Shown here one piece after another: positions 1 through 12,474 of a DNA stretch of 35,452 bases; within the stretch, counting starts at the first letter, position 1, and every line of letters starts with the position of its first letter. The translations under genes and the position numbers were made by a program. Source of the stretch: Escherichia coli (GTDB lineage Bacteria > Pseudomonadota > Gammaproteobacteria > Enterobacterales > Enterobacteriaceae). The notes under the pieces were generated by a model, which had not been told where the DNA came from, ran no database searches, and saw nothing but the letters and a program-made list of their open reading frames with translations. The stretch is taken from assembly GCF_003334305.1 (NCBI RefSeq), contig NZ_QOWS01000033.1; one strand, 5' to 3'.

Positions 1-14
1 TTGGTTTAGGAGAA
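1..14. repeat. Left crossover site of the invertible tail-fibre segment; only one half-site plus the centre is visible at the window edge
   Basis: TTGGTTTAGGAGAA is the reverse complement of 1585-1598 (TTCTCCCAAACCAA) with 13/14 matches. On both copies it encodes the shared peptide (V)GLGE. Confidence 0.6.
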
Positions 15-497
15 GGCTCTGCATTACCGGTTGGGGTGCCTGTTCCGTGGCCTTCAGCCACTCCGCCAACAGGCTGGCTGAAATGCAATGGTGCGGCTTT
101 TTCTGCTGAAGAATACCCGGAACTGGCAAAGGCTTACCCGACCAATAAATTGCCTGATTTACGTGGTGAGTTTATTCGTGGCTGGGATGATGAACGTGGT
201 GTGGATAGTGGGCGAACTCTGCTTTCATCGCAAGGAGATGCTATTCGAAACATTACTGGCGGTTTTGGTCAGTTGCGCGTAAACAGCGAAATTAATGCAA
301 TTGTCGATGTTCAAAGTGTGAGTGGGGCTTTTTACGGAGGTACCTCAGTCCGGAATAACATCAATGTGTCTATGACATACGCTAATGACCGAAAAATCCG
401 ACAAGATGTTCACTTCTCGGCGGCAAATGTTGTTCCAACAGCAAATGAAAATCGTCCACGTAACATCGCCTTTAATTATATTGTGAGGGCCGCATGA
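1..497 (+). CDS. Tail fibre protein gpH, C-terminal variable (receptor-binding) part; 5' end outside window
   Basis: The frame is open from base 3 (..GLGEGSALPVGVPVPWPS..). It has a tail-collar-type motif PTGWLKCNGAAFSAEEYPELAKAY..LPDLRGEFIRGW. The stop overlaps the start of the Tfa gene (ATGATGA). Confidence 0.85.
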   Translation, partial: GLGEGSALPVGVPVPWPSATPPTGWLKCNGAAFSAEEYPELAKAYPTNKLPDLRGEFIRGWDDERGVDSGRTLLSSQGDAIRNITGGFGQLRVNSEINAIVDVQSVSGAFYGGTSVRNNINVSMTYANDRKIRQDVHFSAANVVPTANENRPRNIAFNYIVRAA

Positions 498-1102
498 TGA
501 ATAAAGCTGTATTAAATAGCAAACTCATTGCCATAAAAGCGGGAGACATTATCATTTATAATTATGATGGTGAAACGCGGGAATATATTTCTACATCAAC
601 TGAATATCTCGCTGTCGGCGTCGGTATCCCGGCATGTTCTTGTTTAGATGCTCCGGGCTCAAACAAAGCTGGTTATGCAATTTGTCGTTCTGTAGATTTA
701 AACTCATGGGAATATGTGCCAGACCATCGCGGTGAAGTTGTCTATAGTACCGAAACGGGAGATACCAAAGAAATCACAGCTCCGGGTGATTACCCTGAAA
801 ATACAACCATTATCGCCCCATTAACGCCATACGATAAATGGGATGGTGAGAAATGGGTGACCGATACTGAGGCACAGCATAGCGCCGCAGTAGACGCGGC
901 AGAAGCACAGCGTCAGTCACTGATTGATGCTGCAATGGCTTCCATCAGTCTGATTCAGCTGAAATTACAGGCCGGACGGAAGTTGATGCAGGCAGAAACA
1001 ACCCGGCTTAACGCCGTGCTGGATTACATTGACGCGGTGACGGCAACAGATACCAGCACCGCGCCTGATATTATTTGGCCTGTATTCCCTGAGACTGATT
1101 AA
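494..1102 (+). CDS. Tail fibre assembly chaperone (gpG / Tfa family)
   Basis: 202-aa ORF directly coupled to H. Typical Tfa sequence (..YNYDGETREYI..WEYVPDHRGEVVYSTETG..PLTPYDKWDGEKWVTD..). Confidence 0.9.
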   Translation: MMNKAVLNSKLIAIKAGDIIIYNYDGETREYISTSTEYLAVGVGIPACSCLDAPGSNKAGYAICRSVDLNSWEYVPDHRGEVVYSTETGDTKEITAPGDYPENTTIIAPLTPYDKWDGEKWVTDTEAQHSAAVDAAEAQRQSLIDAAMASISLIQLKLQAGRKLMQAETTRLNAVLDYIDAVTATDTSTAPDIIWPVFPETD

Positions 1103-1331
1103 CCTCAATTAGTATTGGTTCGCCTTTCTCATTAATTGTTAGCTCCATGCCCTGAGGAATTTCTGTCATAGTAAAAAACCAGTTGTCCTCCGGTAATTCA
1201 ATAGCCCCGGTCACGTCATGAAGACCGGGGATTACTTCAGTCAAAGTAACTGGATTAAACAGGCGCACAATAAACCCTCCAGGAAAAAGCATTTGATGAT
1301 GGTCTGCCGTCGTACATCTGGCAGCGGGCAT
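1071..1331 (-). CDS. Small ORF in the inverted half of the cassette; possible alternative tail-fibre chaperone (start uncertain, internal ATG at 1292)
   Basis: It occupies the position where Mu/P1/e14-type cassettes carry the second chaperone (U'). It is only 73-86 aa, has no convincing SD, and overlaps the upstream cassette ORF and the convergent end of G. Confidence 0.3.
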   Translation of the reverse strand: MPAARCTTADHHQMLFPGGFIVRLFNPVTLTEVIPGLHDVTGAIELPEDNWFFTMTEIPQGMELTINEKGEPILIEVNQSQGIQAK

Positions 1332-1599
1332 AAAAGCCGGTATTTGTTACCTGATCATCCACGATCATTGAAACATGAACATTATTAGGTGTGCTCTCGT
1401 AATCCGTTCTTATTCTTTCCGCGATACTGATAAAACGTGAAAGTTTAGGCAGTGCAATTGGGTAAACAACTTTAGCCAGTCCATTATCATTAGATCCACC
1501 GGTTCCAAATACTTCTATTGCACCGTCTGACCAGCGTATCCATGCACCATTGGCATTAGCTCCTCGCTGAATGACATATCTGGCTTCTCCCAAACCAAC
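1255..1599 (-). CDS. Silent alternative tail-fibre C-terminal cassette (Hv'), expressed only after inversion
   Basis: The minus-strand frame reads ..VGLGEARYVIQRGANANGAWIRWSDGAIEVFG..FSWRVYCAPV*. It begins at the same VGLGE joint as the expressed copy. The GxW..W.DG..(Q/V)xG...F.W pattern is typical of phage fibre tip domains. The ATG at 1638 lies outside the invertible segment and is probably not used. Confidence 0.7.
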   Translation of the reverse strand, partial: VGLGEARYVIQRGANANGAWIRWSDGAIEVFGTGGSNDNGLAKVVYPIALPKLSRFISIAERIRTDYESTPNNVHVSMIVDDQVTNTGFYARCQMYDGRPSSNAFSWRVYCAPV

Positions 1600-1610
1600 G
1601 TTTAAGAAAA
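1585..1610. repeat. Right crossover site (gix/hix/cix/pix-like 26-bp site)
   Basis: TTCTCCCAAACCAACGTTTAAGAAAA has two imperfect 12-bp half-sites around a central AA. About 19/26 bases match the hix-type sequence TTCTTGAAAACCAAGGTTTTTGATAA as I recall it. It is inverted relative to bases 1-14 and sits just upstream of the invertase gene. Confidence 0.7.
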
Positions 1611-1665
1611 TGCAGAGGTAACAGCTAACTGGCATCATCTCCGGTTTTTATTCAGGGGGATGATC

Positions 1666-2232
1666 ATGCTTATTGGCTATGTACGCGTGTCAACAAATGA
1701 CCAGAACACCGATTTGCAACGTAATGCACTGAACTGCGCGGGATGTGAGCAGATTTTTGAGGACAAAATCAGTGGCACTAAGTCCGACAGACCGGGGCTG
1801 AAAAAACTACTCAGGACACTATCGGCAGGAGACACGCTGGTTGTCTGGAAGCTGGACAGGTTGGGGCGCAGTATGCGGCATCTTGTTACGCTGATAGAAG
1901 AGTTGCGCCAGCGTGGTGTGAATTTCAGAAGCCTGACTGACAGTATTGATACCAGTACCCCAATGGGTCGTTTCTTTTTTCATGTCATGGGTGCCCTGGC
2001 TGAAATGGAACGCGAACTGATAGTTGAACGTACCAGGGCAGGGCTGGCTGCAGCTCGTGCCAAAGGCAGAGTAGGTGGACGCCGTCCTAAGTTGACCACC
2101 GAACAGTGGGCACAGATTGGGCGTTTACTCGAGGCCGGAGAATCAAGACAGCGTATTGCACTGATTTTTGATGTAGGCGTTTCTACCATTTATAGAAAAT
2201 TTCCGGCAAATAAGATCAATGAATCCCCCTGA
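1666..2232 (+). CDS. Serine DNA invertase, Pin/Gin/Cin/Hin family
   Basis: MLIGYVRVSTNDQNTDLQRNAL..GDTLVVWKLDRLGRSM..MGRFFFHVMGALAEMERELIVERT..GGRRPKL..STIYRKF is near-identical in pattern to Pin/Gin. The ORF track starts 2 codons earlier (1660), but family members start MLIGY. Confidence 0.95.
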   Translation: MLIGYVRVSTNDQNTDLQRNALNCAGCEQIFEDKISGTKSDRPGLKKLLRTLSAGDTLVVWKLDRLGRSMRHLVTLIEELRQRGVNFRSLTDSIDTSTPMGRFFFHVMGALAEMERELIVERTRAGLAAARAKGRVGGRRPKLTTEQWAQIGRLLEAGESRQRIALIFDVGVSTIYRKFPANKINESP

Positions 2233-2280
2233 ATCAGCATTATGTTGATTATCCCTGCAAGCAGACAAATACCGTTATTT

Positions 2281-2298
2281 TGTGTGAATAACGACACA
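2281..2298 (+). promoter_or_regulatory. Candidate Ogr-dependent late promoter element (TGT-N12-ACA dyad) for the FI-FII-E-T-U-D operon
   Basis: TGTGTGAATAACGACACA fits the TGT-N12-ACA dyad described for P2/186/P4 late promoters. It lies 77-94 nt upstream of the FI ATG. Confidence 0.5.
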
Positions 2299-2374
2299 AC
2301 TGCGCTTAGCTGTTTGTCAGGCACAATCACTTCAACATAGGGCGAAGCCTAATCCAATCAGGAGGTTCGCCACT

Positions 2375-3547
2375 ATGGCTCAGGATTACCACCACGGGGT
2401 GCGCGTTGTTGAAGTCAACGAAGGCACCCGATCTATTACCACGGTGAGCACCGCCATCGTGGGTATGGTCTGCACGGGCGATGATGCCGATGCAAAAATG
2501 TTTCCTCTTAATAAACCCGTGCTGATCACTGATGTGCTGACTGCCAGCGGTAAAGCGGGTGAGTCAGGTACTCTGGCCCGTTCGCTGGATGCCATCGCTG
2601 ACCAGGCAAAACCCGTGACCATTGTTGTGCGTGTGCCGCAGGGTGAAACGGAAGACGAAACCACGACCAATATCATCGGCGCAGTGACTGCTGAAGGTAA
2701 AAAAACAGGTATGAAAGCCCTGTTATCTGCCCAGTCACAGCTCGGCGTTAAACCGCGCATTCTCGGCGTGCCAGGCCACGACACCAAGGCGGTAGCTACT
2801 GAGTTGCTGAGCGTGGCGCAAAGCCTGCGTGGATTTGCTTACCTGTCAGCGTATGGCTGCAAGACAGTGCAGGAGGCGATCACTTACCGCGAAAACTTCA
2901 GCCAGCGCGAAGGGATGCTGATCTGGCCTGACTTTACTGGCTGGGACACGGTGCTGAATGCCGAAGCAACGGCATATGCCACCGCCCGTGCGCTTGGTCT
3001 GCGCGCCAAAATTGACGAGCAGACCGGATGGCACAAAAGCCTGTCCAACGTGGGCGTGAACGGTGTCACCGGAATTTCTGCAGATGTGTTCTGGGATCTG
3101 CAGGACCCGGCAACCGATGCAGGTCTGCTGAACCAGAACGACGTCACCACGCTTGTGCGTAAAGACGGTTTCCGCTTCTGGGGTTCCCGCTGCCTGAGTG
3201 ATGACCCGCTCTTTGCCTTCGAAAACTACACCCGCACGGCGCAGGTGCTGATGGACACGATGGCAGAAGCACACATGTGGGCGGTGGATAAACCGCTTAA
3301 CCCGTCGCTGGCCCGCGACATTATCGAAGGTATCCGCGCCAAAATGCGCAGCCTGGTCAGTCAGGGCTATCTCATTGGTGGTGATTGCTGGCTGGATGAG
3401 TCGGTGAACGACAAAGACACGCTGAAAGCCGGAAAACTCACCATCGACTACGACTACACGCCAGTGCCGCCACTTGAAAACCTGATGCTGCGTCAGCGCA
3501 TCACCGATCAGTACCTGGTGAATTTCGCCAGCCAGGTCAGCGCGTAA
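2375..3547 (+). CDS. Contractile tail sheath protein (gpFI)
   Basis: 390-aa ORF preceded by AGGAGG. The sequence [13 protein letters not shown].. is the characteristic P2 FI-type N-terminus, and the position in the operon fits. Confidence 0.95.
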
Positions 3548-3556
3548 GGGGACAAC

Positions 3557-4072
3557 ATGGCATTACCACGCAAATTAAAACACCTGAACCTGTTTAACGA
3601 CGGGAACAACTGGCAGGGGATCGTTGAGTCGCTGACGCTGCCGAAATTTACCCGCAAATATGAGAAGTATCGCGGCGGCGGAATGCCGGGTGCGGTGGAT
3701 GTGGATCTGGGGCTTGATGACAGTGCGCTGGACACAGAATTTTCCATTGGTGGTACTGAATTGCTGCTGTTTAAACAGATGGGTAAAGCCACGGTGGATG
3801 GCATCCAGCTGCGCTTTACCGGCTCTATTCAGCGTGACGATACCGGGGAAGTGCAGGCCGTGGAGCTTGTCGTGCGTGGACGTCACAAAGAAGTGGATTC
3901 CGGCGAGTGGAAGACGGGCGAAAGCAACACCACCAAAGTGACCAGTACCAACAGCTACGCGAAGCTGACCATCAATGGTGAGGTGCTCTATGAAGTGGAC
4001 CTTATCAACATGGTGGAAATTGTGGACGGTGTGGACCTGATGGAAGCGCACCGCAACGCCCTCGGCCTCTGA
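3557..4072 (+). CDS. Tail tube protein (gpFII)
   Basis: 171-aa ORF 10 nt after FI. MALPRKLKHLNLFNDGNNWQG.. is a P2 FII-type sequence. Confidence 0.95.
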   Translation: MALPRKLKHLNLFNDGNNWQGIVESLTLPKFTRKYEKYRGGGMPGAVDVDLGLDDSALDTEFSIGGTELLLFKQMGKATVDGIQLRFTGSIQRDDTGEVQAVELVVRGRHKEVDSGEWKTGESNTTKVTSTNSYAKLTINGEVLYEVDLINMVEIVDGVDLMEAHRNALGL

Positions 4073-4126
4073 TATATCTGAACGGCGCGGGATACCGCGC
4101 CAGAACCCAATTGACAGGACAGCAAA

Positions 4127-4429
4127 ATGAGCGATAAGCAGACTGAAAAGACCATTCAACTGGATACCCCCATCAAGCGCGGTAAAACAGAAATCACCGA
4201 AATTGTGCTGCGTAAACCGCAGTCCGGTGCGCTACGCGGTACACGCCTGCAGGCCATTATGGATATGGATGTAAACGCGATGATGACCGTGATCCCCCGC
4301 ATCTCCAGTCCGGCACTGACTGCACAGGAAATTGCAGAGATGGACCCGGCAGATCTCACTGCCATGTCGGTTGAGGTTGTCACTTTTTTGTTGAAGAAGT
4401 CGGTGCTTGCCGGTTTACCGACAGCCTGA
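4127..4429 (+). CDS. Tail assembly chaperone gpE
   Basis: 100-aa ORF between the tube and tape-measure genes. It contains the slippery site near its 3' end. Confidence 0.9.
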   Translation: MSDKQTEKTIQLDTPIKRGKTEITEIVLRKPQSGALRGTRLQAIMDMDVNAMMTVIPRISSPALTAQEIAEMDPADLTAMSVEVVTFLLKKSVLAGLPTA

Positions 4430-4563
4430 CGGTTGACGATCTGGTGGCAGATATCGCCACCATTTTTCACTGGCCGCCATCCGTTACTGACGTTATGCCG
4501 CTGACCGAAGTGCTGGAATGGCGGTATAAAGCGATTCAGAGAAGCGGGGCCAACGATGAGTGA
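4127..4563 (+). CDS. gpE+E' frameshift-extended tail chaperone (join 4127..4389, 4389..4563)
   Basis: Hand translation of the -1 frame after the heptamer gives VEEVGACRFTDSLTVDDLVADIATIFHWPPSVTDVMPLTEVLEWRYKAIQRSGANDE*. The TGA at 4561-4563 overlaps the T start. Confidence 0.8.
4384..4390 (+). other. -1 programmed frameshift slippery heptamer T TTT TTG
   Basis: TTTTTTG sits in the frame T.TTT.TTG of gpE, the same heptamer reported for P2 E/E+E'. The -1 frame stays open to 4563. Confidence 0.8.
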
Positions 4564-7500
4564 TAACAACCTGCGTCTGCAGGTCATTCTTAATGCGGTT
4601 GACAAGCTCACCCGCCCATTTCGATCTGCGCAGGCCAGTTCAAGAGAACTGGCTGCTGCTGTCAAAAAATCCCGCGATGCAATAAAGCAGCTTGATCAGG
4701 CCGGGAGCAGTCTGGACAGCTTCCGAAAGCTGCAGGCAGAAAATCAGAAATTAGGCGACAGGCTGAACTATGCCCGCCAGCGTGCAAATTTGCTCAGTCA
4801 GGAACTGGGAGCGATGGGGCCGCCTTCGCAACGTCAGGTTGTTGCTCTGGGCCGTCAACGGCTGGCTGTTCAGCGCCTGGAAGAACGCCAGAAAAAGCTG
4901 CAGCAGCAGACGGCGCTTGTGCGTGCTGAACTGTACCGGGCGGGAATTTCTGCGAAAGACGATGCGGGAGCAACTGCCCGTTTAGCCCGTGAAACATCAC
5001 GTTATAACCAGGAACTTTCGAAACAGGAGGCGCGGCTGAAGCGACTGGGGGAAGCTCAGCGCAGGATGAATGCAGCGCGTGCCAGTTATGCCCGTTCGCT
5101 GGAGGTGCGTGATCGTATTGCAGGTGCCGGAGCCACCACCACGGCTGCAGGGCTGGCAATGGGTGCGCCAGTGATGGCGGCAGTAAAAAGCTATACCAGC
5201 ATGGAAGATGCCATGAAAGGTGTGGCAAAGCAGGTCAATGGTCTGCGTGACGATAATGGCAACCGCACTGCACGTTTTTATGAAATGCAGGATGCCATCA
5301 AGGCTGCCAGCGAACAGTTGCCGATGGAAAACGGTGCGGTGGACTTCGCTGCACTGGTTGAAGGTGGTGCGCGCATGAACGTCGCAAACCCTGACGACAG
5401 CTGGGAAGATCAGAAACGTGACCTGCTGGCCTTCGCCAGTACGGCAGCAAAGGCGGCAACAGCCTTTGAGCTGCCAGCGGATGAACTGTCAGAAAGTCTG
5501 GGGAAAATCGCCCAGCTCTACAAAATCCCCACCCGCAATATTGAACAGCTCGGTGATGCGCTGAACTATCTGGATGATAACGCCATGTCGAAAGGGGCAG
5601 ACATCATTGATGTGATGCAACGTCTGGGCGGTGTGGCTGACCGTCTGGATTATCGTAAAGCGGCGGCGCTGGGTTCCACCTTCCTGACACTGGGCGCTGC
5701 GCCGGAGGTTGCAGCCAGTGCAGCAAACGCGATGGTGCGTGAATTGTCCATTGCCACCATGCAAAGCAAGAGTTTCTTTGAAGGGATGAATCTGCTGAAA
5801 CTCAATCCTGAAGTGATTGAAAAGCAGATGACGAAGGATGCGATGGGAACCATCCAGCGCGTGCTGGAGAAGGTAAACGCGCTGCCGCAGGACAAGCGCC
5901 TGTCTGCCATGACTATGTTGTTTGGTAAAGAGTTTGGCGATGACGCGGCGAAACTGGCAAACAACCTGCCGGAACTGCAGCGTCAGTTAAAACTGACAGC
6001 GGGCAATGATGCGCTTGGCTCCATGCAGAAAGAATCCGACATTAACAAGGATTCACTTTCTGCGCAGTGGTTGCTGGTCAAAACCGGAGCGCAGAACACC
6101 TTCAGCAGCCTGGGCGAAACGCTGCGCCAGCCGCTGATGGATATTCTGTACACGGTGAAAAGCGTCACGGGGGCGTTGCGTCGCTGGGTGGAAGCTAACC
6201 CGGAACTGACAGGCACACTGATGAAAGCATCGGCTGTTGTGGCTGCGGTTACCGTCGGCCTCGGCACCTTAGCGGTGGCGCTGGCTGCAGTGCTGGGGCC
6301 GCTGGCAGTGATCCGTCTGGGATTCTCTGTGTTGGGTATCAAAACGTTATCTTCCGTTACGGCAGCAGTAACTCGAACCAGCAGCGCGTTGTCCTGGCTG
6401 GCTGGCGCACCACTGGCACTGCTGCGACGCGGGCTTGCTTCATCGGGCAACGCCGCAGGTTTACTTACTGCGCCGTTGTCGTCTTTGCGCCGCACGGCAT
6501 CACTGACGGGAAATGTCCTGAAAACTGTAGCAGGTGCGCCGGTTGCACTTTTGCGGTCTGGATTATCCGGTTTACGTGCGGTTGCTGTGATGTTTATGAA
6601 TCCACTGGCAGCACTACGCGGCGGGCTGGCTGCCGCAGGCACGGTGCTGCGAGTACTGGCATCTGGTCCACTGGCGATGTTGCGCGTTGCCCTGTATGCC
6701 GTATCTGGTCTGTTAGGTGCTCTGCTCAGTCCGATAGGTCTTGTGGTTACTGCACTGGCGGGTGTGGCACTGGTTGTCTGGAAATACTGGCAACCCATCA
6801 CCGCATTTCTCGGTGGCGTGGTGGAAGGATTCAAAGCGGCGGCAGGTCCCATCAGTGCAGCGTTCGAACCGCTTAAGCCTGTGTTCCAGTGGATTGGTGA
6901 CAAAGTGCAGGCGCTGTGGGGCTGGTTTACTGATCTGCTGACGCCCGTTAAGTCGACTTCTGCCGAACTGCAGAGCGCAGCGGCAATGGGGCGACGATTC
7001 GGGGAGGCACTGGCGGAAGGGCTGAATATGGTCATGCATCCGCTGGACTCCCTGAAATCCGGCGTTTCCTGGTTGCTGGAGAAGCTCGGCATTATCAGTA
7101 AAGAGGCCGCAAAGGCAAAACTGCCGGAAAGCGTGACGCGTCAGCAACCTGCGACGGTGAATGCAGACGGTAAAGTGATGATGCCATCGGGTGGTTTTCC
7201 GTCATGGGGATATGGCTTTGCGGGGATGTATGACAGCGGCGGCTATATCCCGCGCGGGCAGTTTGGCATCGTCGGTGAAAACGGGCCGGAAATTGTTAAC
7301 GGCCCGGCAAATGTGACCAGCCGGAGAAATACAGCTGCACTGGCTGCCGTTGTTGCCGGAATGATGGGCGTTGCTGCCGCGCCTGCAGAGCTTCCACCGT
7401 TGCACCCTTTGGCACTTCCCGCGAAAGGCGGCGAAGCGATGGTGAGTCGTGCAGCCACTGTGCCGCCCGTTCAACGGATTGAGGCACCGATGCAGATCAT

Positions 7501-7633
7501 CATTCAGACGCAGCCAGGACAAAGTGCGCAGGATATTGCGCGGGAGGTGGCCCGCCAGCTTGATGAACGTGAACGCAGGCTGAAGGCAAAAGCCAGGAGT
7601 AACTACAGCGATCAGGGGGGATACGACGCATGA
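4556..7633 (+). CDS. Tail tape measure protein (gpT)
   Basis: 1025-aa ORF with a coiled-coil N-terminus and a central hydrophobic repeat block. Its position after E/E' fits. Confidence 0.95.
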   Translation: MSDNNLRLQVILNAVDKLTRPFRSAQASSRELAAAVKKSRDAIKQLDQAGSSLDSFRKLQAENQKLGDRLNYARQRANLLSQELGAMGPPSQRQVVALGRQRLAVQRLEERQKKLQQQTALVRAELYRAGISAKDDAGATARLARETSRYNQELSKQEARLKRLGEAQRRMNAARASYARSLEVRDRIAGAGATTTAAGLAMGAPVMAAVKSYTSMEDAMKGVAKQVNGLRDDNGNRTARFYEMQDAIKAASEQLPMENGAVDFAALVEGGARMNVANPDDSWEDQKRDLLAFASTAAKAATAFELPADELSESLGKIAQLYKIPTRNIEQLGDALNYLDDNAMSKGADIIDVMQRLGGVADRLDYRKAAALGSTFLTLGAAPEVAASAANAMVRELSIATMQSKSFFEGMNLLKLNPEVIEKQMTKDAMGTIQRVLEKVNALPQDKRLSAMTMLFGKEFGDDAAKLANNLPELQRQLKLTAGNDALGSMQKESDINKDSLSAQWLLVKTGAQNTFSSLGETLRQPLMDILYTVKSVTGALRRWVEANPELTGTLMKASAVVAAVTVGLGTLAVALAAVLGPLAVIRLGFSVLGIKTLSSVTAAVTRTSSALSWLAGAPLALLRRGLASSGNAAGLLTAPLSSLRRTASLTGNVLKTVAGAPVALLRSGLSGLRAVAVMFMNPLAALRGGLAAAGTVLRVLASGPLAMLRVALYAVSGLLGALLSPIGLVVTALAGVALVVWKYWQPITAFLGGVVEGFKAAAGPISAAFEPLKPVFQWIGDKVQALWGWFTDLLTPVKSTSAELQSAAAMGRRFGEALAEGLNMVMHPLDSLKSGVSWLLEKLGIISKEAAKAKLPESVTRQQPATVNADGKVMMPSGGFPSWGYGFAGMYDSGGYIPRGQFGIVGENGPEIVNGPANVTSRRNTAALAAVVAGMMGVAAAPAELPPLHPLALPAKGGEAMVSRAATVPPVQRIEAPMQIIIQTQPGQSAQDIAREVARQLDERERRLKAKARSNYSDQGGYDA

Positions 7634-8115
7634 TGATGGTGCTGGGATTGTACGTGTTTATGCTGCGCACCGTGCCGTATCAGGAGCTGCAGTATCAACG
7701 CAGCTGGCGACATGCGGCAAACAGCCGGGTAAACCGACGTCCGTCCACGCAGTTTCTGGGACCGGACAACGACATGCTGACGCTTTCCGGTGTTCTTATG
7801 CCGGAGATAACAGGTGGCAGGCTGTCGTTGCTGGCACTGGAGCAGATGGCAGAACAGGGGAAAGCATGGCCCCTGATTGAAGGCAGCGGCACGATTTATG
7901 GCATGTATGTGATTGAGGGACTGAATCAGACTAAAACGGAGTTTTTCCGCGACGGTATGCCGCGCCGGATTGAGTTCACCCTGTCGCTCAAACGGGTGGA
8001 TGAATCCCTGTCCGATATGTTCGGTGATCTCAGTGCGCAACTGAATAATCTGCAGGAAACGGCAACGTCTGCCTTAAGCGATATCAGTAAAACGGTGGGA
8101 GGGCTGCTGTCGTGA
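7630..8115 (+). CDS. Tail protein gpU
   Basis: 161 aa, ATGA overlap with T. MMMVLGLYVFMLRTVPYQELQ.. is a P2 gpU-type sequence. Confidence 0.9.
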   Translation: MMMVLGLYVFMLRTVPYQELQYQRSWRHAANSRVNRRPSTQFLGPDNDMLTLSGVLMPEITGGRLSLLALEQMAEQGKAWPLIEGSGTIYGMYVIEGLNQTKTEFFRDGMPRRIEFTLSLKRVDESLSDMFGDLSAQLNNLQETATSALSDISKTVGGLLS

Positions 8116-9212
8116 ATTTCAGCTCTGAACTGCTTAACAAAAGCAACAAAACTCCGGCATTCAGCATCAGTATTGAGGGCAGGGATATCACTACTGTGCT
8201 GGATAACCGCCTGATGAGTCTGACTCTGACGGACAATCGGGGCTTTGAAGCAGACCAGCTTGATCTGGAGCTGGACGATGCCGACGGGAAAATCGTGCTG
8301 CCGCGCCGTGGTGCGGTCATTACGCTGGCGCTGGGCTGGAAGGGGCAGCCGCTTTTCCCGAAAGGGGCATTCACGGTGGACGAGATTGAACACACTGGCG
8401 CACCGGACCGCCTGACTATCCGGGCGCGAAGTGCTGATTTTCGGGAAACGCTGAATACCCGCCGTGAAAAATCGTGGCACAAGACCACCATTGGGGAAGT
8501 GGTGAAGGAGATAGCCGCGCGGCACAAGCTGAAGATGGTACTGGGTAAAGACCTGTCGGATAAGCTCGTGGAGCATATAGACCAGACTAATGAGAGTGAC
8601 GGTAGTTTTCTGATGCGGCTGGCGCGCCAGTACGGTGCTATTGCGTCGGTGAAAAATGGCAATCTGTTATTCATCCGGCAGGGACAGGGCAAAAGTGCCA
8701 GCGGTAAACCACTGCCGGTGATCACTATCACACGTAAGGACGGCGACAGTCACCGCTTTACCCTGGCAGATCGCGGAGCCTATACGGGCATAATTGCCAG
8801 CTGGTTGCATACCCGCGAACCCGCGAAGAAAGAAAGCACCACGGTGAAGCGTAAGCGCAGGACTAAGAAGCAGAAGAAAGAGCCGGAAGCGAAGCAGGGC
8901 GATTACCTGGTGGGTACGGATGAAAACGTGCTGGTACTTAATCGCACTTATGCCAACCGGAGCAACGCTGAACGGGCAGCGAAAATGCAGTGGGAACGCC
9001 TGCAACGCGGCGTTGCGTCATTCTCGCTACAACTGGCGGAAGGGCGGGCAGATCTCTACACGGAAATGCCAGTGAAAGTCAGTGGCTTTAAACAGCCGAT
9101 AGATGATGCGGAATGGACCATTACGACTCTGACACATACCGTCAGCCCGGATAATGGTTTTACGACCAGTCTTGAGCTTGAAGTGAAGGTTGATGATCTC
9201 GAAATGGAATGA
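8112..9212 (+). CDS. Tail/late protein gpD
   Basis: 366 aa, GTGA overlap with U. The ..ISIEGRDIT..LMSLTLTDNRGFEADQLDLELDD.. motif is typical of gpD. Confidence 0.9.
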   Translation: MNFSSELLNKSNKTPAFSISIEGRDITTVLDNRLMSLTLTDNRGFEADQLDLELDDADGKIVLPRRGAVITLALGWKGQPLFPKGAFTVDEIEHTGAPDRLTIRARSADFRETLNTRREKSWHKTTIGEVVKEIAARHKLKMVLGKDLSDKLVEHIDQTNESDGSFLMRLARQYGAIASVKNGNLLFIRQGQGKSASGKPLPVITITRKDGDSHRFTLADRGAYTGIIASWLHTREPAKKESTTVKRKRRTKKQKKEPEAKQGDYLVGTDENVLVLNRTYANRSNAERAAKMQWERLQRGVASFSLQLAEGRADLYTEMPVKVSGFKQPIDDAEWTITTLTHTVSPDNGFTTSLELEVKVDDLEME

Positions 9213-9302
9213 TTCTTCACAATGGAGAACTTTTAAGTTTGAAAAATGGAATAATGCGATATCATTATTGTGAATTTAGCAAAAATGGGGAGAACTCGAA
9301 AA

Positions 9303-9521
9303 ATGATGATTTGCCCACTGTGTGGAAGTGCCGCCCATACTCGCAGCAGTTTTCAGGTATCTTCATTGACCAAAGAGCGTTACAACCAGTGCCAGAACAT
9401 TAACTGCAGCCATACTTTTGTTACCCATGAAACTTTTGTTCGTTCGATTGCAACGCCAAAAGAGTCAAATCCGGTTCAGCCGCATCCTCATAAATTTAAA
9501 CAGGTGGGTTTGCCGATTTAA
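9303..9521 (+). CDS. ogr: Ogr late-gene transcriptional activator (zinc-finger)
   Basis: MMICPLCGSAAHTRSS...KERYNQCQNINCSHTF has the Cys-X2-Cys...Cys-X4-Cys pattern of P2 Ogr. Starting at 9303 gives 72 aa. The ORF track start at 9270 and the ATG at 9285 are alternatives. Confidence 0.9.
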   Translation: MMICPLCGSAAHTRSSFQVSSLTKERYNQCQNINCSHTFVTHETFVRSIATPKESNPVQPHPHKFKQVGLPI

Positions 9522-9585
9522 ATGGCGACATAACTACATGATTTAAAACTATACTTTTCTATAAGTTGAGGTTAAATTAACAATG

Positions 9586-9762
9586 CCTGACGTTAGCGGG
9601 GATTTATCCCCACTCCGTAGATATGTAGTTTGTCGCTTTGCGACTGCGGACCGATTACCTGATTGCCATGTAATCGGACGCCGACTTGTTAAGCTTTCTG
9701 GGCTAACTGGTTGTTATTTTTTATTTAGTTAGGGCCATGCGCTTGCGCTAAGAGACGTCAGG
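9586..9762 (+). ncRNA. Candidate structured RNA upstream of the RT (retron msr/msd-like or DRT-type template RNA); ends not determined
   Basis: There is no credible ORF. A long-range helix pairs 9586-9598 (CCTGACGTTAGCG) with 9746-9751 + 9756-9762 (CGCTAA / CGTCAGG), leaving a 4-nt bulge. It encloses abutting hairpins at 9598-9611, 9614-9650, 9651-9677 (8-bp stem CCGATTAC/GTAATCGG) and 9701-9736. Folded by eye only. Confidence 0.45.
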
Positions 9763-9782
9763 TATCTATGGAGGAACAAGTT

Positions 9783-9956
9783 ATGGATACAAACGAACTT
9801 GGCTTAGTTAAGGCGCGTGTTGAACTGATCACCGCTATGCTCAAATGCGCAACCGCGTTTGTTGGCTTAGTTGGTGCGGTTTACGCCGTTCTTAACATGG
9901 CCTTCAACTACAACAATTTAACTCATGACAATAGAAGTTCAAAGGTGGGAAGATAA
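9783..9956 (+). CDS. Small hydrophobic protein (57 aa, one predicted TM helix), candidate effector/toxin partner of the RT
   Basis: GGAGGA at 9770-9775 lies 7 nt before the ATG at 9783. The sequence is MDTNELGLVKARVELITAMLKCATAFVGLVGAVYAVLNMAFNYNNLTHDNRSSKVGR, with a hydrophobic core CATAFVGLVGAVYAVLNMAF. Its 3' end overlaps the RT start by 32 nt. It could instead be part of the ncRNA. Confidence 0.5.
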   Translation: MDTNELGLVKARVELITAMLKCATAFVGLVGAVYAVLNMAFNYNNLTHDNRSSKVGR

Positions 9957-10698
9957 ATTTGAGATTAAGCCCGGGGTTTGGGTTTATGTCCCAAGCGTTG
10001 AGGCACGTAAAGTCGGAGGGAAGATACTTCAGGCTGTCAGAAACAAGTGGATTCCGCCACTCTATTTTTACCATCTAAGAACTGGTGGGCATCTTAAAGC
10101 TGCCAGATTACACTTAAAAAGTGATTTTTTTGCCGTTGTTGATATTAAACAATTTTTTCAGTCAACGAGCCGTAGTCGTATCACCCGTGATCTAAAGAGC
10201 TACTTCACCTATTCTCAAGCGCGGGAAATCTCAACATTTTCAACTGTAAGAAACTTGTCCCATAGTCCACATAAGCATGTCCTCCCTTTTGGTTTTGTTC
10301 AATCTCCAATACTTGCAACCCTCTGCTTAGATAAAAGTTATTTTGGTAGCTTACTACGCCGATTGAACAAACATCATGATCTCAAGCTAAGTGTGTTTAT
10401 GGATGATGTGATCATCTCGTCAAACGATTTGGCCCAATTACAAGCGGCTTACGACGAAGCACTAGTGGCAATGCGTAAATCTGGTTATCAAGCCAACATG
10501 AGTAAAACTCAGGCACCATCGTCAAAGATTAGCGTGTTTAATTTAACTTTGAGTAAGGGAGTTATGAAAGTCACATCTCAGAAAATGAGTGACTTCCTGA
10601 TTGATTTCTATTCAAGCAATTATGAGCCGCACAGAATAGGGGTCAAAAACTACGTCGAAGCTGTTAATCCAGGGCAAGCGAAACTCTTTAAGTTGTAA
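9925..10698 (+). CDS. Minimal reverse transcriptase (257 aa), retron/DRT-like, unclassified
   Basis: RT motifs seen in order: KVGGKIL (motif 1-like), FFAVVDIKQFFQSTS (motif A, Asp at 10141-10143), LPFGFVQSPILATLCL (motif B'), LSVFMDDVIISS (motif C, FMDD at 10396-10407), GYQANMSKTQ (motif D), ISVFNLTLS (motif E). Only ~50 aa follow motif E. Confidence 0.85.
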   Translation: MTIEVQRWEDKFEIKPGVWVYVPSVEARKVGGKILQAVRNKWIPPLYFYHLRTGGHLKAARLHLKSDFFAVVDIKQFFQSTSRSRITRDLKSYFTYSQAREISTFSTVRNLSHSPHKHVLPFGFVQSPILATLCLDKSYFGSLLRRLNKHHDLKLSVFMDDVIISSNDLAQLQAAYDEALVAMRKSGYQANMSKTQAPSSKISVFNLTLSKGVMKVTSQKMSDFLIDFYSSNYEPHRIGVKNYVEAVNPGQAKLFKL

Positions 10699-10767
10699 TT
10701 GCGATCGCATGTAGTAGCAACTGGGCTTGACTGAATGTCTGCCGCCATTTTGCCGCCACTACTAAAG

Positions 10768-10795
10768 AAAAAAGGGCTACGCTTTCACGTAACCC
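10768..10795 (-). terminator. Rho-independent terminator immediately after ssrA
   Basis: The minus strand reads GGGTTACG-TGAAAG-CGTAGCCC followed by TTTTTT. It begins 12 nt after the CCA end. Confidence 0.75.
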
Positions 10796-10806
10796 CTTGA
10801 TTTATT

Positions 10807-11169
10807 TGGTGGAGCTGGCGGGAGTTGAACCCGCGTCCGAAATTCCTACATCCTCGGTACTACATGCTTAGTCAGTCTTTACATTCGCTTGCCAGCTGCG
10901 GACGGACACGCCACTAACAAACTAGCCTGATTAAGTTTTAACGCTTCAACCCCAGGCAGGGCTTCCACGCGATCTCTTTTGGGTTTGACCTCTCTTGATC
11001 CCCGTCCTAAGAGCGGAGGCTAGGGAGAGAGGGCTCTAAGCAGGTTATTAAGCTGCTAAAGCGTAGTTTTCGTCGTTTGCGACTATTTTTTGCGGCTTTT
11101 TACGAGGCCAACCGCCCCTCGGCATGCACCTTGGGTTTCGCAAATCCCGTCGAATCCAGAATCAGCCCC
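10807..11169 (-). ncRNA. ssrA: tmRNA (SsrA), 363 nt
   Basis: The reverse complement reads GGGGCTGATTCTGGATTCGACGGGATTTGCG...GGTTCAACTCCCGCCAGCTCCACCA. The tag ORF GCAAACGACGAAAACTACGCTTTAGCAGCTTAA (ANDENYALAA*) is at 11080-11048. Confidence 0.98.
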
Positions 11170-11183
11170 AATGTGTAAAGGTA

Positions 11184-11192
11184 AGTATACCA
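11184..11192 (-). promoter_or_regulatory. Probable ssrA extended -10 promoter element
   Basis: The minus strand has TGgTATACT, ending 14 nt upstream of the mature 5' GGGG. This is consistent with a short RNase P-processed leader. The -35 is poor. Confidence 0.4.
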
Positions 11193-11383
11193 GATTTATG
11201 AGCGCCATGACCAGCCTCAATGGCGTTATCGTTAAAGATTTAGCACCCATGTAGCCTGATTTTTATTCGATTAAGCAATGGGATGGCAACATTTGTGTCG
11301 GATGTGATAGCCAATAAGATGTTCATTCGCGCCGCCGGAGAGGGAGGCGCGGTGAGGAACTGGTCAATAATTGGAGTGCAGGT

Positions 11384-11866
11384 TTAACGGTGGGCGTTTT
11401 TCATGATACGTGCTTTATCCACCTGCCATTCGCGTTCTTTGATATCTGAACGTTTATCGTGCTGTTTTTTACCTTTGGCGACGCCGATTTTCACTTTGCA
11501 CCAGGCATTTTTCCAGTACAGGGAGAGCGCCACTACGGTATAGCCTTCTCGATTGACGCGACCGTACAATGAGTCCAGTTCGCGTTGGTTGAGAAGTAAC
11601 TTGCGGGTACGGGTAGGATCGCACACCACATGCGTGGAGGCCACGGCCATTGGCGTGATGTTAGCGCCAAACAGAAATGCCTCTCCGTCACGCAGAAGGA
11701 CGTAGCTGTCGCTGATATTGGCTTTTCCTGCGCGCAGGGATTTAACCTCCCAGCCTTGCAGGGCAAGTCCCGCTTCGAACTCTTCTTCGATAAAGTATTC
11801 GTGACGGGCGCGCTTGTTAAGCGCGATGGTCGCTGAACCAGGTTTATGTGCTTTTTTCTTCGTCAT
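11384..11866 (-). CDS. smpB: SsrA-binding protein SmpB
   Basis: The 160-aa sequence [45 protein letters not shown].. is recognised. It lies adjacent to ssrA. Confidence 0.98.
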
Positions 11867-11997
11867 AAGCGTCGTGAATCATCGGTAATCTGAAATCGAA
11901 AACACCCCATATCAATCCTGCGGGGGACAAGGCTCTATCTTAGCATGAACCCGATGTTACCCAGCGCCGGGATAGCGTTTTTTTTACAGCAGGATAA

Positions 11998-12474
11998 ATG
12001 ATATTATTTGTTGGATTTTTGTTGATGGAAATTGTTATGCCTCAGATTAGCCGGACCGCACTGGTACCCTACAGCGCGGAGCAAATGTATCAGTTAGTGA
12101 ATGACGTTCAGTCTTATCCTCAGTTTTTGCCGGGTTGTACCGGAAGTCGGATTCTGGAGTCCACTCCTGGGCAGATGACTGCGGCGGTAGATGTCTCTAA
12201 GGCTGGGATCAGCAAAACGTTTACTACCCGCAACCAGTTGACCAGTAACCAAAGTATTCTTATGAATCTGGTGGATGGGCCGTTCAAGAAATTGATTGGT
12301 GGATGGAAGTTTACGCCGCTGAGCCAGGAGGCGTGTCGTATCGAGTTTCATCTCGACTTTGAGTTTACCAATAAGTTGATTGAACTCGCCTTTGGTCGCG
12401 TGTTTAAAGAGCTGGCGTCTAATATGGTCCAGGCTTTTACGGTTCGTGCGAAAGAGGTTTACAGTGCCAGGTAA
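11998..12474 (+). CDS. ratA: RatA/PasT (SRPBCC, ribosome association toxin-annotated protein)
   Basis: The 158-aa sequence is recognised (..[34 protein letters not shown]..). The true start may be the internal MPQISR. Confidence 0.9.

Follow-up and report, generated by a model that had tools for sequence, protein, structure and literature searches.

A compact retron-type cassette in a P2-like prophage of Escherichia coli, with an RNA that may gate a small hydrophobic protein

What is a reverse transcriptase (RT) of 257 amino acids (aa) doing at the end of a P2-like prophage, behind a structured RNA and an open reading frame (ORF) for a small hydrophobic protein? The question is raised by a cassette at positions 9522-10806 of a 35,452-nt stretch of Escherichia coli DNA (contig NZ_QOWS01000033.1 of RefSeq assembly GCF_003334305.1; hereafter the window), in which ogr is followed by the RNA, the ORF of the small protein (SP), the RT ORF and the tmRNA gene ssrA, in that order. 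We conclude that the cassette is probably a compact retron-type retroelement that travels as prophage cargo and whose RNA gates SP, most likely as a phage-defence switch. A reading of the bare sequence, the original prediction, had described a compact module of RT, non-coding RNA (ncRNA) and small effector carried by a prophage, and the retron RT matches, the retained RNA and SP, and the ogr and ssrA neighbours reported below bear that description out.

The RT ORF (9925-10698, plus strand, like all other cassette features unless stated; WP_000151541.1, the same protein as STY2879 of Salmonella Typhi) overlaps the SP ORF by 32 nt. It matches Pfam RVT_1 at 2e-21, and its active-site residues D73, Q126-S127-P128 and D160-D161 (FMDD) are unvarying across the family, which upholds its identification as an RT from motifs. 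Of the RT profiles that it matches, those of retrons are the best. In PADLOC, RT_VI comes first (63 bits), a CRISPR-associated RT model second, and RT_I-B reaches 54 bits; the top models are otherwise retron RTs. RT_VI also leads in all 38 family members tested, with a best value of 1.9e-24 that nearly ties with 4.6e-24 for RT_I-B. When a profile of the RT family was compared with all PDB sequences, retron RTs again ranked first, led by Ec86 (3e-12, over Ec86 residues 59-296). An AlphaFold2 model of the RT, built with 40 homologues, is of high predicted quality (pLDDT, the predicted local distance difference test, 95.6; predicted TM-score, pTM, 0.90), and the first 17 Foldseek matches to it are all retron RTs, with query TM-scores of 0.66-0.77. 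These matches comprise Ec86, Ec83, Eco7/Ec78, type I-A, Eco8 and Eco2, and they are followed by DRT9, G2L4 and group II intron RTs.

Ec86 (Eco1) is thus the best match of the window RT in both sequence and structure. Compared with Ec86, the window RT is without about 58 N-terminal and about 24 C-terminal residues, and compared with canonical retrons it has VFN in place of the VTG motif. The RT family forms 284 clusters at 50% identity (E ≤ 1e-30), and the best 150 of the 284 cluster representatives are mostly about 245-270 aa long, with some shorter fragments. As modelled, the 257-aa RT is a complete but trimmed retron-fold enzyme and no fragment. That the RT is unusually short, as first remarked, is true in that 257 aa lies below the type VI (279) and type X (272) profiles; the shortfall is only modest, and the length is normal for the family.

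Other kinds of RT were also considered. The best of the models for the UG and defence-associated RT (DRT) groups, RT_UG33, gives 33 bits, and Drt3a gives 17.6 bits against a cut-off of 200. The group II maturase model TIGR04416 gives 23 bits against a cut-off of 300, and Rfam found no intron RNA. A diversity-generating retroelement was rejected: no template/variable direct repeat pair occurs in positions 1-12000. In a second profile search, against a set of 5.8 billion proteins, only family members were among the matches listed. The RT is not of the UG/DRT, abortive infection (Abi), diversity-generating or group II kind.

Is the RT a lone gene, or does it belong with the RNA and SP? Of 185,579 species genomes scanned by pattern and tblastn, 148 contain relatives; the best 79 loci were analysed, and 56 further loci came from IMG/VR viral contigs, many of them 33-37 kb long with the RT at one end. 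The 79 genome loci span gamma-, beta- and alphaproteobacteria, Mariprofundus, Desulfobulbales and a few metagenome-assembled genomes (MAGs) of other phyla. The RNA, SP and RT occur in the same order in about 130 independent loci of alpha-, beta- and gammaproteobacteria and viral contigs, a recurrence far in excess of what chance would give. Homologous loci therefore retain the RNA as well as the small ORF. Within 2.8 kb, the 79 genome loci share no conserved neighbour apart from SP; the next largest gene cluster is confined to 7 of them. An effector gene between the ncRNA and the RT gene is also the arrangement of Sen2. Two loci stand out for their binning: a Candidatus Roizmanbacteria MAG (L010) and an Anaerolineae MAG (L051) hold full SP-RT units of proteobacterial-type sequence in bins of the candidate phyla radiation (CPR) and Chloroflexota, which could reflect either binning contamination or horizontal transfer.

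The 261 nt that follow ogr contain no credible ORF (a spurious 49-aa ORF at 9583-9732 has no match in Pfam, PADLOC or NCBIfam) and fold more stably than shuffled sequences, with z = -3.4 for 9522-9790, z = -4.6 for 9522-9990 and no shuffle as good. The structured, ORF-free stretch originally predicted after ogr is thus confirmed, with the amendment that the functional RNA covers about 190 nt (9586-9773) and not the whole 245 nt. This retron-like msr-msd ncRNA begins with a1, the 5' arm of a terminal inverted repeat (CCUGACGU, 9586-9593), and a UAG directly 3' of it (9594-9596). There follow the stem-loop SL1 (9598-9611), a strand complementary to the Shine-Dalgarno (SD) region, the anti-SD strand (CUCCGUAGAUA, 9613-9623), SL2 (9632-9644), a variable long hairpin (about 9645-9683), a UUAGUU box (9725-9730) and a GCGC hairpin (9739-9748). 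The element closes with a2, the 3' arm that pairs with a1 (ACGUCAGG, 9755-9762), and with the SD-bearing strand (UAUCUAUGGAGG, 9763-9774), of which the part 9763-9773 (UAUCUAUGGAG) pairs with the anti-SD strand.

Relatives share this layout. The first half of their consensus runs CCYGRCG (a1), UAG, a GC-rich SL1, a pyrimidine-rich strand, GUCAC-NNN-GUGAU (SL2) and a variable stretch, and the second half a UUGGUU box, a CAUGCGC-loop-GCGCUAGG hairpin, CGYCRGG (a2), a purine-rich SD strand and the SP start. SL2 shows A-U/G-C exchanges among relatives, and the GCGC hairpin is almost unvarying. In the UAG, A14 and G15 are unvarying among 46 distinct RNAs and T13 is kept in at least 90%. The msr-msd RNAs of the Ec86 type are defined by terminal inverted repeats, a conserved motif containing G directly behind a1, short hairpins in the msr and a long hairpin, variable in make-up, in the msd. 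As in canonical retrons, a1 and a2 here enclose msr hairpins and a long hairpin, which is likely the msd, and a UAG follows a1; its last base, G9596, is a candidate for the branching (priming) guanosine. Two differences from canonical retrons are that the effector there is an enzyme and here a peptide of 40-60 aa, and that the msr here doubles as an SD-occluding element.

A covariance model (R1), built from a sequence-only MAFFT alignment of the 46 distinct RNAs, matches the window at 9582-9781 (67 bits, E 1e-11). It also matches 58 of the 79 genome loci, 51 of the 56 viral loci, none of which was used in building it, and 3 of 3 Klebsiella loci, for a total of 112 loci, and every match lies on the coding strand immediately 5' of SP. 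An Rfam scan of 9300-11200 at E ≤ 10 returned the tmRNA only and nothing in the cassette.

Two long-range helices of this RNA covary. In a1/a2, 7 of the 8 pairs are changed on both sides in the 46-RNA MAFFT alignment, and over the whole structure tested 94.4% of cells are paired, compared with 28-41% when the 3' partner is slid along the alignment; none of 500 shuffles reaches the observed values. Cognate a1/a2 duplexes have a mean energy of -15.9 kcal/mol against -10.0 for non-cognate ones (0 of 5000 permutations as good). For the anti-SD/SD helix, variable spacers put the MAFFT alignment out of register, and we therefore used an alignment-free duplex test, in which cognate duplexes average -14.8 kcal/mol and non-cognate ones -10.3 (again 0 of 5000 permutations as good). 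In the window this helix has 11 contiguous pairs, one of them G-U, and its strands change together between loci: CCUCAUC with GAUGAGG, CCUUUGACAUA with UAUGUCAAAGG, and CCUCGACUC with GAGUCGAGG. This second helix, in which a segment of the msr would occlude the SP SD, is newly described here. It gives concrete support to the original suggestion that the RT and its RNA control the peptide.

The strands lie along the RNA in the order a1, anti-SD, a2, SD, so that the two helices cross, which implies either a pseudoknot or toggling between alternative states. Constrained folds of 9584-9800 put the a1/a2 state at -69.1 kcal/mol and the anti-SD/SD state at -68.5 kcal/mol, and such nearly iso-energetic predicted folds are what a switch would be expected to show. 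Even in the a1/a2 state, part of the SP start codon stays paired within a small hairpin.

The gated protein would be SP (9783-9956; RefSeq WP_000380485.1, a hypothetical protein), the 57-aa ORF that had been called small, hydrophobic and preceded by a strong SD. The SD is GGAGG at 9770-9774, 8 nt 5' of the ATG, and the maximal 19-residue Kyte-Doolittle mean is 1.94, both in line with that call. Across the family the mean has a median of 1.77 and 52 of 77 non-redundant members reach at least 1.6, whereas the type VI retron proteins Sen3 and Vpa2 are less hydrophobic by the same measure (1.03 and 0.71). The family is marked by an N-terminus that is polar or basic, by a single long hydrophobic helix and by the conserved motif ...MAFNY, in which Y43 is invariant and N42 nearly so. 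From this layout SP is likely a single membrane-inserting or strongly amphipathic helix, and it is the probable effector of the system. SP has no match in Pfam, PADLOC or NCBIfam. An iterated hidden Markov model of the family found it at the expected site in 126 of 136 loci, with only 5 matches elsewhere among 20,492 ORFs.

Ten loci are without a separate SP, and 6 of these carry SP fused in frame to the RT, bringing SP to 132 of 136 loci. The fusions occur in at least three unrelated lineages, namely a 302-aa form in Klebsiella pneumoniae, Kistimonas and a Desulfobulbales MAG (loci L138-L140, 4001-4909, from K. pneumoniae; L042, L063, L104 and L113-L115), and in them the terminal ...NY runs straight into the RT methionine. 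The K. pneumoniae fusion occurs in 7802 blocks of a contig collection, beside umuDC and outside a P2 prophage, and its retron-like RNA stops 2 nt before the fused ORF. Such natural fusions indicate that SP and RT work together. One of these K. pneumoniae genomes (L138) also encodes an unrelated 494-aa RT (RVT_1; 78-1562) 2.4 kb upstream of the mini-RT, and this two-RT region may be a small defence island.

How might the three parts act as one? In the mechanism that we favour, the RT would bind the msr hairpins, prime from the 2'-OH of G9596 and copy the msd starting beside a2, yielding multicopy single-stranded DNA (msDNA). As long as a cell is uninfected, the msr would occlude the SP ribosome-binding site and keep SP harmless, and the RT-msDNA complex may additionally bind SP. 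Phage infection would alter the synthesis, level or stability of the msDNA, or the fold of the RNA, and SP would then be translated or released, leading to membrane damage and growth arrest of the infected cell. Abortive infection of this kind would protect the prophage along with the population of lysogens. Type IV retrons (Ec48/Eco6), in which the RT is likewise paired with a membrane-type effector, suggest membrane damage as the output of abortive infection. The type IV effector has two transmembrane segments, whereas SP has a single short helix and is encoded upstream of the RT, and RT_IV is outside the best PADLOC models for the window RT.

A more specific version of this mechanism is conceivable, and we offer it tentatively. 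The cassette would represent a fourteenth retron type, whose RNA is at once sensor and gate. A pseudoknot or toggle would set a priming-competent a1/a2 state against the SD-occluding state. Reverse transcription of the msd, together with RNase H, would uncouple the anti-SD from the toxin mRNA, so that the cDNA licenses translation with no helix-turn-helix (HTH) or other accessory protein.

Several points weigh against the defence-switch reading. No curated retron model is reached: the best NCBIfam model, retron_St85_RT, scores 49.5 bits against a cut-off of 235, and the best PADLOC score is modest, with RT_VI and RT_I-B close to a tie. Because no curated family model claims the RT, the label 'retron' rests on the fold, the RNA architecture and the gene order. 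No SD is visible before the RT start (9925), which overlaps SP, so that RT synthesis may depend on SP translation, which fits poorly with complete repression of SP. The natural fusions would also fit a role of SP as subunit or membrane anchor of the RT in place of a free toxin. On the RNA side, G9596 is proposed as branch point by analogy with canonical retrons, and alphaproteobacterial members are too divergent for R1; the same helices, with complementary changes such as CCCUCGG with CCGAGGG and CCCCUAGC with GCUAGGGG, are recognised in them by eye only. Finally, msDNA production, SP toxicity, membrane targeting and phage defence are all inferred, and the labels 'membrane-disrupting', 'cDNA' and 'anti-phage' in the original prediction share that standing.

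So, is the cassette a known retron in disguise? In operon logic it most resembles type VI (Retron-Vpa2, Retron-Eco12 and Retron-Sen3; Mestre et al. 2020), which likewise has an msr-msd RNA, then a small helical hydrophobic protein, then a short RT (the RT_VI profile has 279 positions), and which also occurs in P2-like phages. In Vpa2 a hybrid RNA keeps the ribosome-binding site of SP sequestered, and msDNA lifts this repression of translation (10.1101/2025.10.22.683967). In Sen3 the SP is a toxin that the cell produces constitutively and neutralises after translation, and inhibition of RecBCD is the trigger (10.64898/2026.04.27.721009). A type VI retron of the order ncRNA-SP-HTH-RT that merely lacks its HTH gene and works like Vpa2 or Sen3 would explain why RT_VI is nominally the top model in 38 of 38 members, why the order ncRNA-SP-RT and the helical hydrophobic SP agree, and why the SP ribosome-binding site is sequestered within the retron RNA, here by the covarying anti-SD/SD helix; about 22% of catalogued type VI entries are, moreover, without an HTH gene. 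We nevertheless regard this explanation as unlikely. As a positive control we took the HTH and RT pair of the P2-like Burkholderia phage KS5 (PMC3091744), in which gp44, the RT, reaches 260 bits on RT_VI across the entire profile, and gp45, the HTH protein, has 117 bits on HTH_VI; next to 260 bits, the 63 bits of the window RT, with RT_I-B close behind, indicate that it is not what the type VI model describes. RT_IV and RT_V, the models of the sister types that with VI form clade 3, are not among the top models listed. In the 79 genome loci, the stretch up to 2.8 kb from the RT holds no conserved Cro/C1-type HTH gene (cluster 2_1), and SP abuts, overlaps or is fused to the RT, which leaves no room for a gene between them in any of the 136 loci. 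The C-terminal helices of Sen3 (DIAIRAVSNLTDW) and of one family member (L075, DIVIKAVSYDRRY) look similar by eye, a likeness ruled out by hhalign, which gives the SP family a probability of 0.6% against three type VI SPs of cl2075, one of the four type VI SP clusters (cl2075, cl2760, cl3272 and cl3897). Those proteins have 19-residue hydropathy means of 0.7-1.0 compared with 1.8-1.9 here, with no detectable homology. In Vpa2 an a1/a2-like repeat encloses the SP coding sequence; here a2 comes before the SP start, and no search was made for a further repeat downstream. The published type VI tree does not include WP_000151541, and the literature searched contains no description of an HTH-less SP-RT retron. 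Eco12 is set apart by description only, as part of the SP-HTH-RT type. On the retron side, the RT lineage, an ncRNA closed by a1/a2 with msr and msd hairpins, and a co-localised SP are all present. The cassette nonetheless lies outside the described retron types, set apart by profile scores, gene content and the SP comparison and not by an RT tree. No PADLOC or NCBIfam type model claims the window RT, in agreement with the original view that it could be assigned to no described type.

Two further explanations detach SP from its proposed role. In the one, SP is an N-terminal membrane anchor or regulatory subunit of the RT and no toxin, and the output would be the cDNA or an unlinked host factor, as in a DRT without effector. 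This explanation, which we think rather improbable, draws on the in-frame fusions in at least three lineages, on the family-wide overlap of the SP stop with the RT start, which hints at coupled synthesis, and on DRT9 and G2L4 coming right behind the retron RTs in the fold search. Known retrons, however, also fuse effector domains to the RT (types I-C, VII-A1, XI and XII, by PADLOC model names), so that fusion is no argument against an effector role. UG/DRT models fall far below the retron models, the a1/a2 and UAG architecture is retron-specific, and type VI SPs of similar size are proven toxins. In the other, to which we give very little credence, SP and its leader form a module resembling a type I toxin-antitoxin or superinfection-exclusion system, under the control of its own 5' untranslated region, and the RT is an unrelated or decaying passenger. 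In toxins of the hok and tisB type, the SD of a small hydrophobic peptide is indeed hidden by a long-range fold-back of the leader, and the SD-occluding helix supported by our cognate/non-cognate duplex test makes for a real likeness to hok/sok and tisB/istR. A passenger, though, would hardly be found with SP and the RNA in about 130 loci of three proteobacterial classes, with unvarying catalytic residues and a constant length, behind a leader that bears a retron-type a1/a2 and UAG. Unlike in type I toxin-antitoxin systems, no antisense RNA is evident: the consensus promoter scan found no antisense promoter facing SP, its sole minus-strand site (9575-9548) pointing away, and the leader here serves as a retron's template RNA, with an RT as its obligatory partner.

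A retron-type switch of this kind would sit at the outermost end of the prophage. Upstream, ogr (Pfam Ogr_Delta, 6.7e-22) ends at 9521. Downstream, the RT stop is 108 nt from the tmRNA gene ssrA (10807-11169, minus strand), close to the spacer of about 100 nt first noted, and the last 73 nt of the cassette query (10734-10806) are the attR-side prophage/ssrA junction, a boundary that lies outside the retron unit. The RefSeq annotation of strain C2 runs tail tape measure, gpU, gpD, ogr, a 57-aa hypothetical protein, a 'reverse transcriptase domain-containing protein', ssrA, smpB and ratA, and this gene order identifies the cassette as the final cargo carried by a P2-like prophage that is inserted at the 3' end of ssrA. 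Of 5426 complete E. coli genomes, 28, strain C2 among them, carry the full 1285-bp cassette, whereas the junction segment is common to 773 E. coli records. The cassette occupies a variable slot between ogr and the attachment site of the ssrA-integrated prophage, and in phage Cartapus another gene fills the same ogr-side slot. The low GC content of the cassette relative to the tail genes, part of the original prediction, is clear (0.40-0.44 over 9100-10750 vs 0.53-0.61 over 7000-9000); the drop starts inside ogr, before the cassette proper.

In Cartapus, a P2-like phage (L141, OV696611; 2968-3450 and 3738-4943), the slot between ogr and attP holds a 160-aa 'putative exonuclease' on the opposite strand, and a RES-domain (NAD+-binding) protein lies between attP and the integrase. 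Because Cartapus carries genes on each side, both flanks of the attachment site look like cargo slots. A terminator-like hairpin with a 12-bp stem lies at 10771-10798 of the window, between the RT stop and the 3' end of ssrA; it was found on the minus strand, downstream of ssrA, and is accompanied by a T-run on that strand and by T-rich sequence on the plus strand. Supplied from the prophage side of the junction, the hairpin may serve as terminator for both ssrA and the retron operon.

The spacer 3' of ogr (9522-9585) is not conserved in relatives. It probably holds the cassette promoter, if on weak evidence: by eye, many relatives have a motif resembling TGnTAnnnT (extended -10) some 7-10 nt upstream of a1, and a consensus promoter scan found no plus-strand promoter in 9522-9585. 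An inverted repeat of 14-16 bp joins 9524-9539 to 9623-9636 (GGCGACAUAACUACAU with AUGUAGUUUGUCGC), that is, the region just after ogr to the 5' half of SL2. This stem appears in the minimum free energy fold of 9522-9990 in the window only and is unconserved in relatives, and we excluded it from the element; its pairing could disrupt the retron RNA in transcripts that read through from ogr.

How far has the cassette spread? In the E. coli genomes listed it is 99.7-100% identical to the window at the nucleotide level, and in 13 'Klebsiella phage Kp48xx' records (OK490395 etc., 35,561 bp), where it stands at the very end of the record, the identity is 99.5-99.6%. The RT of S. Typhi is 99-100% identical to that of the window at the protein level. 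Near-identity in E. coli, Klebsiella and S. Typhi points to the recent spread of one P2-like phage over three genera. A tblastn search of phage records returned only the 13 near-identical Klebsiella prophage records. The 90%-identity cluster of the window RT includes 257-aa K. pneumoniae members on hundreds of contigs.

In S. Typhi the gene has a history of its own. STY2879 was present in 22 of 22 S. Typhi isolates of one study (PMC4409374) and has been promoted as a Typhi-specific target for loop-mediated isothermal amplification (LAMP) and polymerase chain reaction (PCR) assays (PMC4409374, PMC12942956). Literature that names the WP_000151541/STY2879 protein concerns its use as a diagnostic marker only. 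Seven of the eight published STY2879 primers match the E. coli window exactly, and the eighth has one mismatch. Because the primers match E. coli and the RT cluster includes Klebsiella, STY2879 is a mobile prophage gene and no species marker.

What would such a system mean? A minimal retron type with two proteins would join the 13 described; its RTs, at about 255 aa, are the shortest of retron type encountered in this analysis. The covariation is evidence that the msr of a retron can take on a second role and gate the translation of its effector, and control of translation by msDNA, so far a matter of Vpa2 only, becomes testable in a simpler system that is without an HTH protein. Current defence annotators (PADLOC v2 and NCBIfam) miss this widespread system, and an RT of 257 aa paired with a template RNA of 190 nt would make an attractive basis for genome editing with retrons. 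A diagnostic target regarded as specific to S. Typhi also sits in E. coli and Klebsiella. P2-like phages move the cassette, at 99.2-100% identity, between E. coli, Klebsiella and Salmonella, and its fused form is very common in K. pneumoniae.

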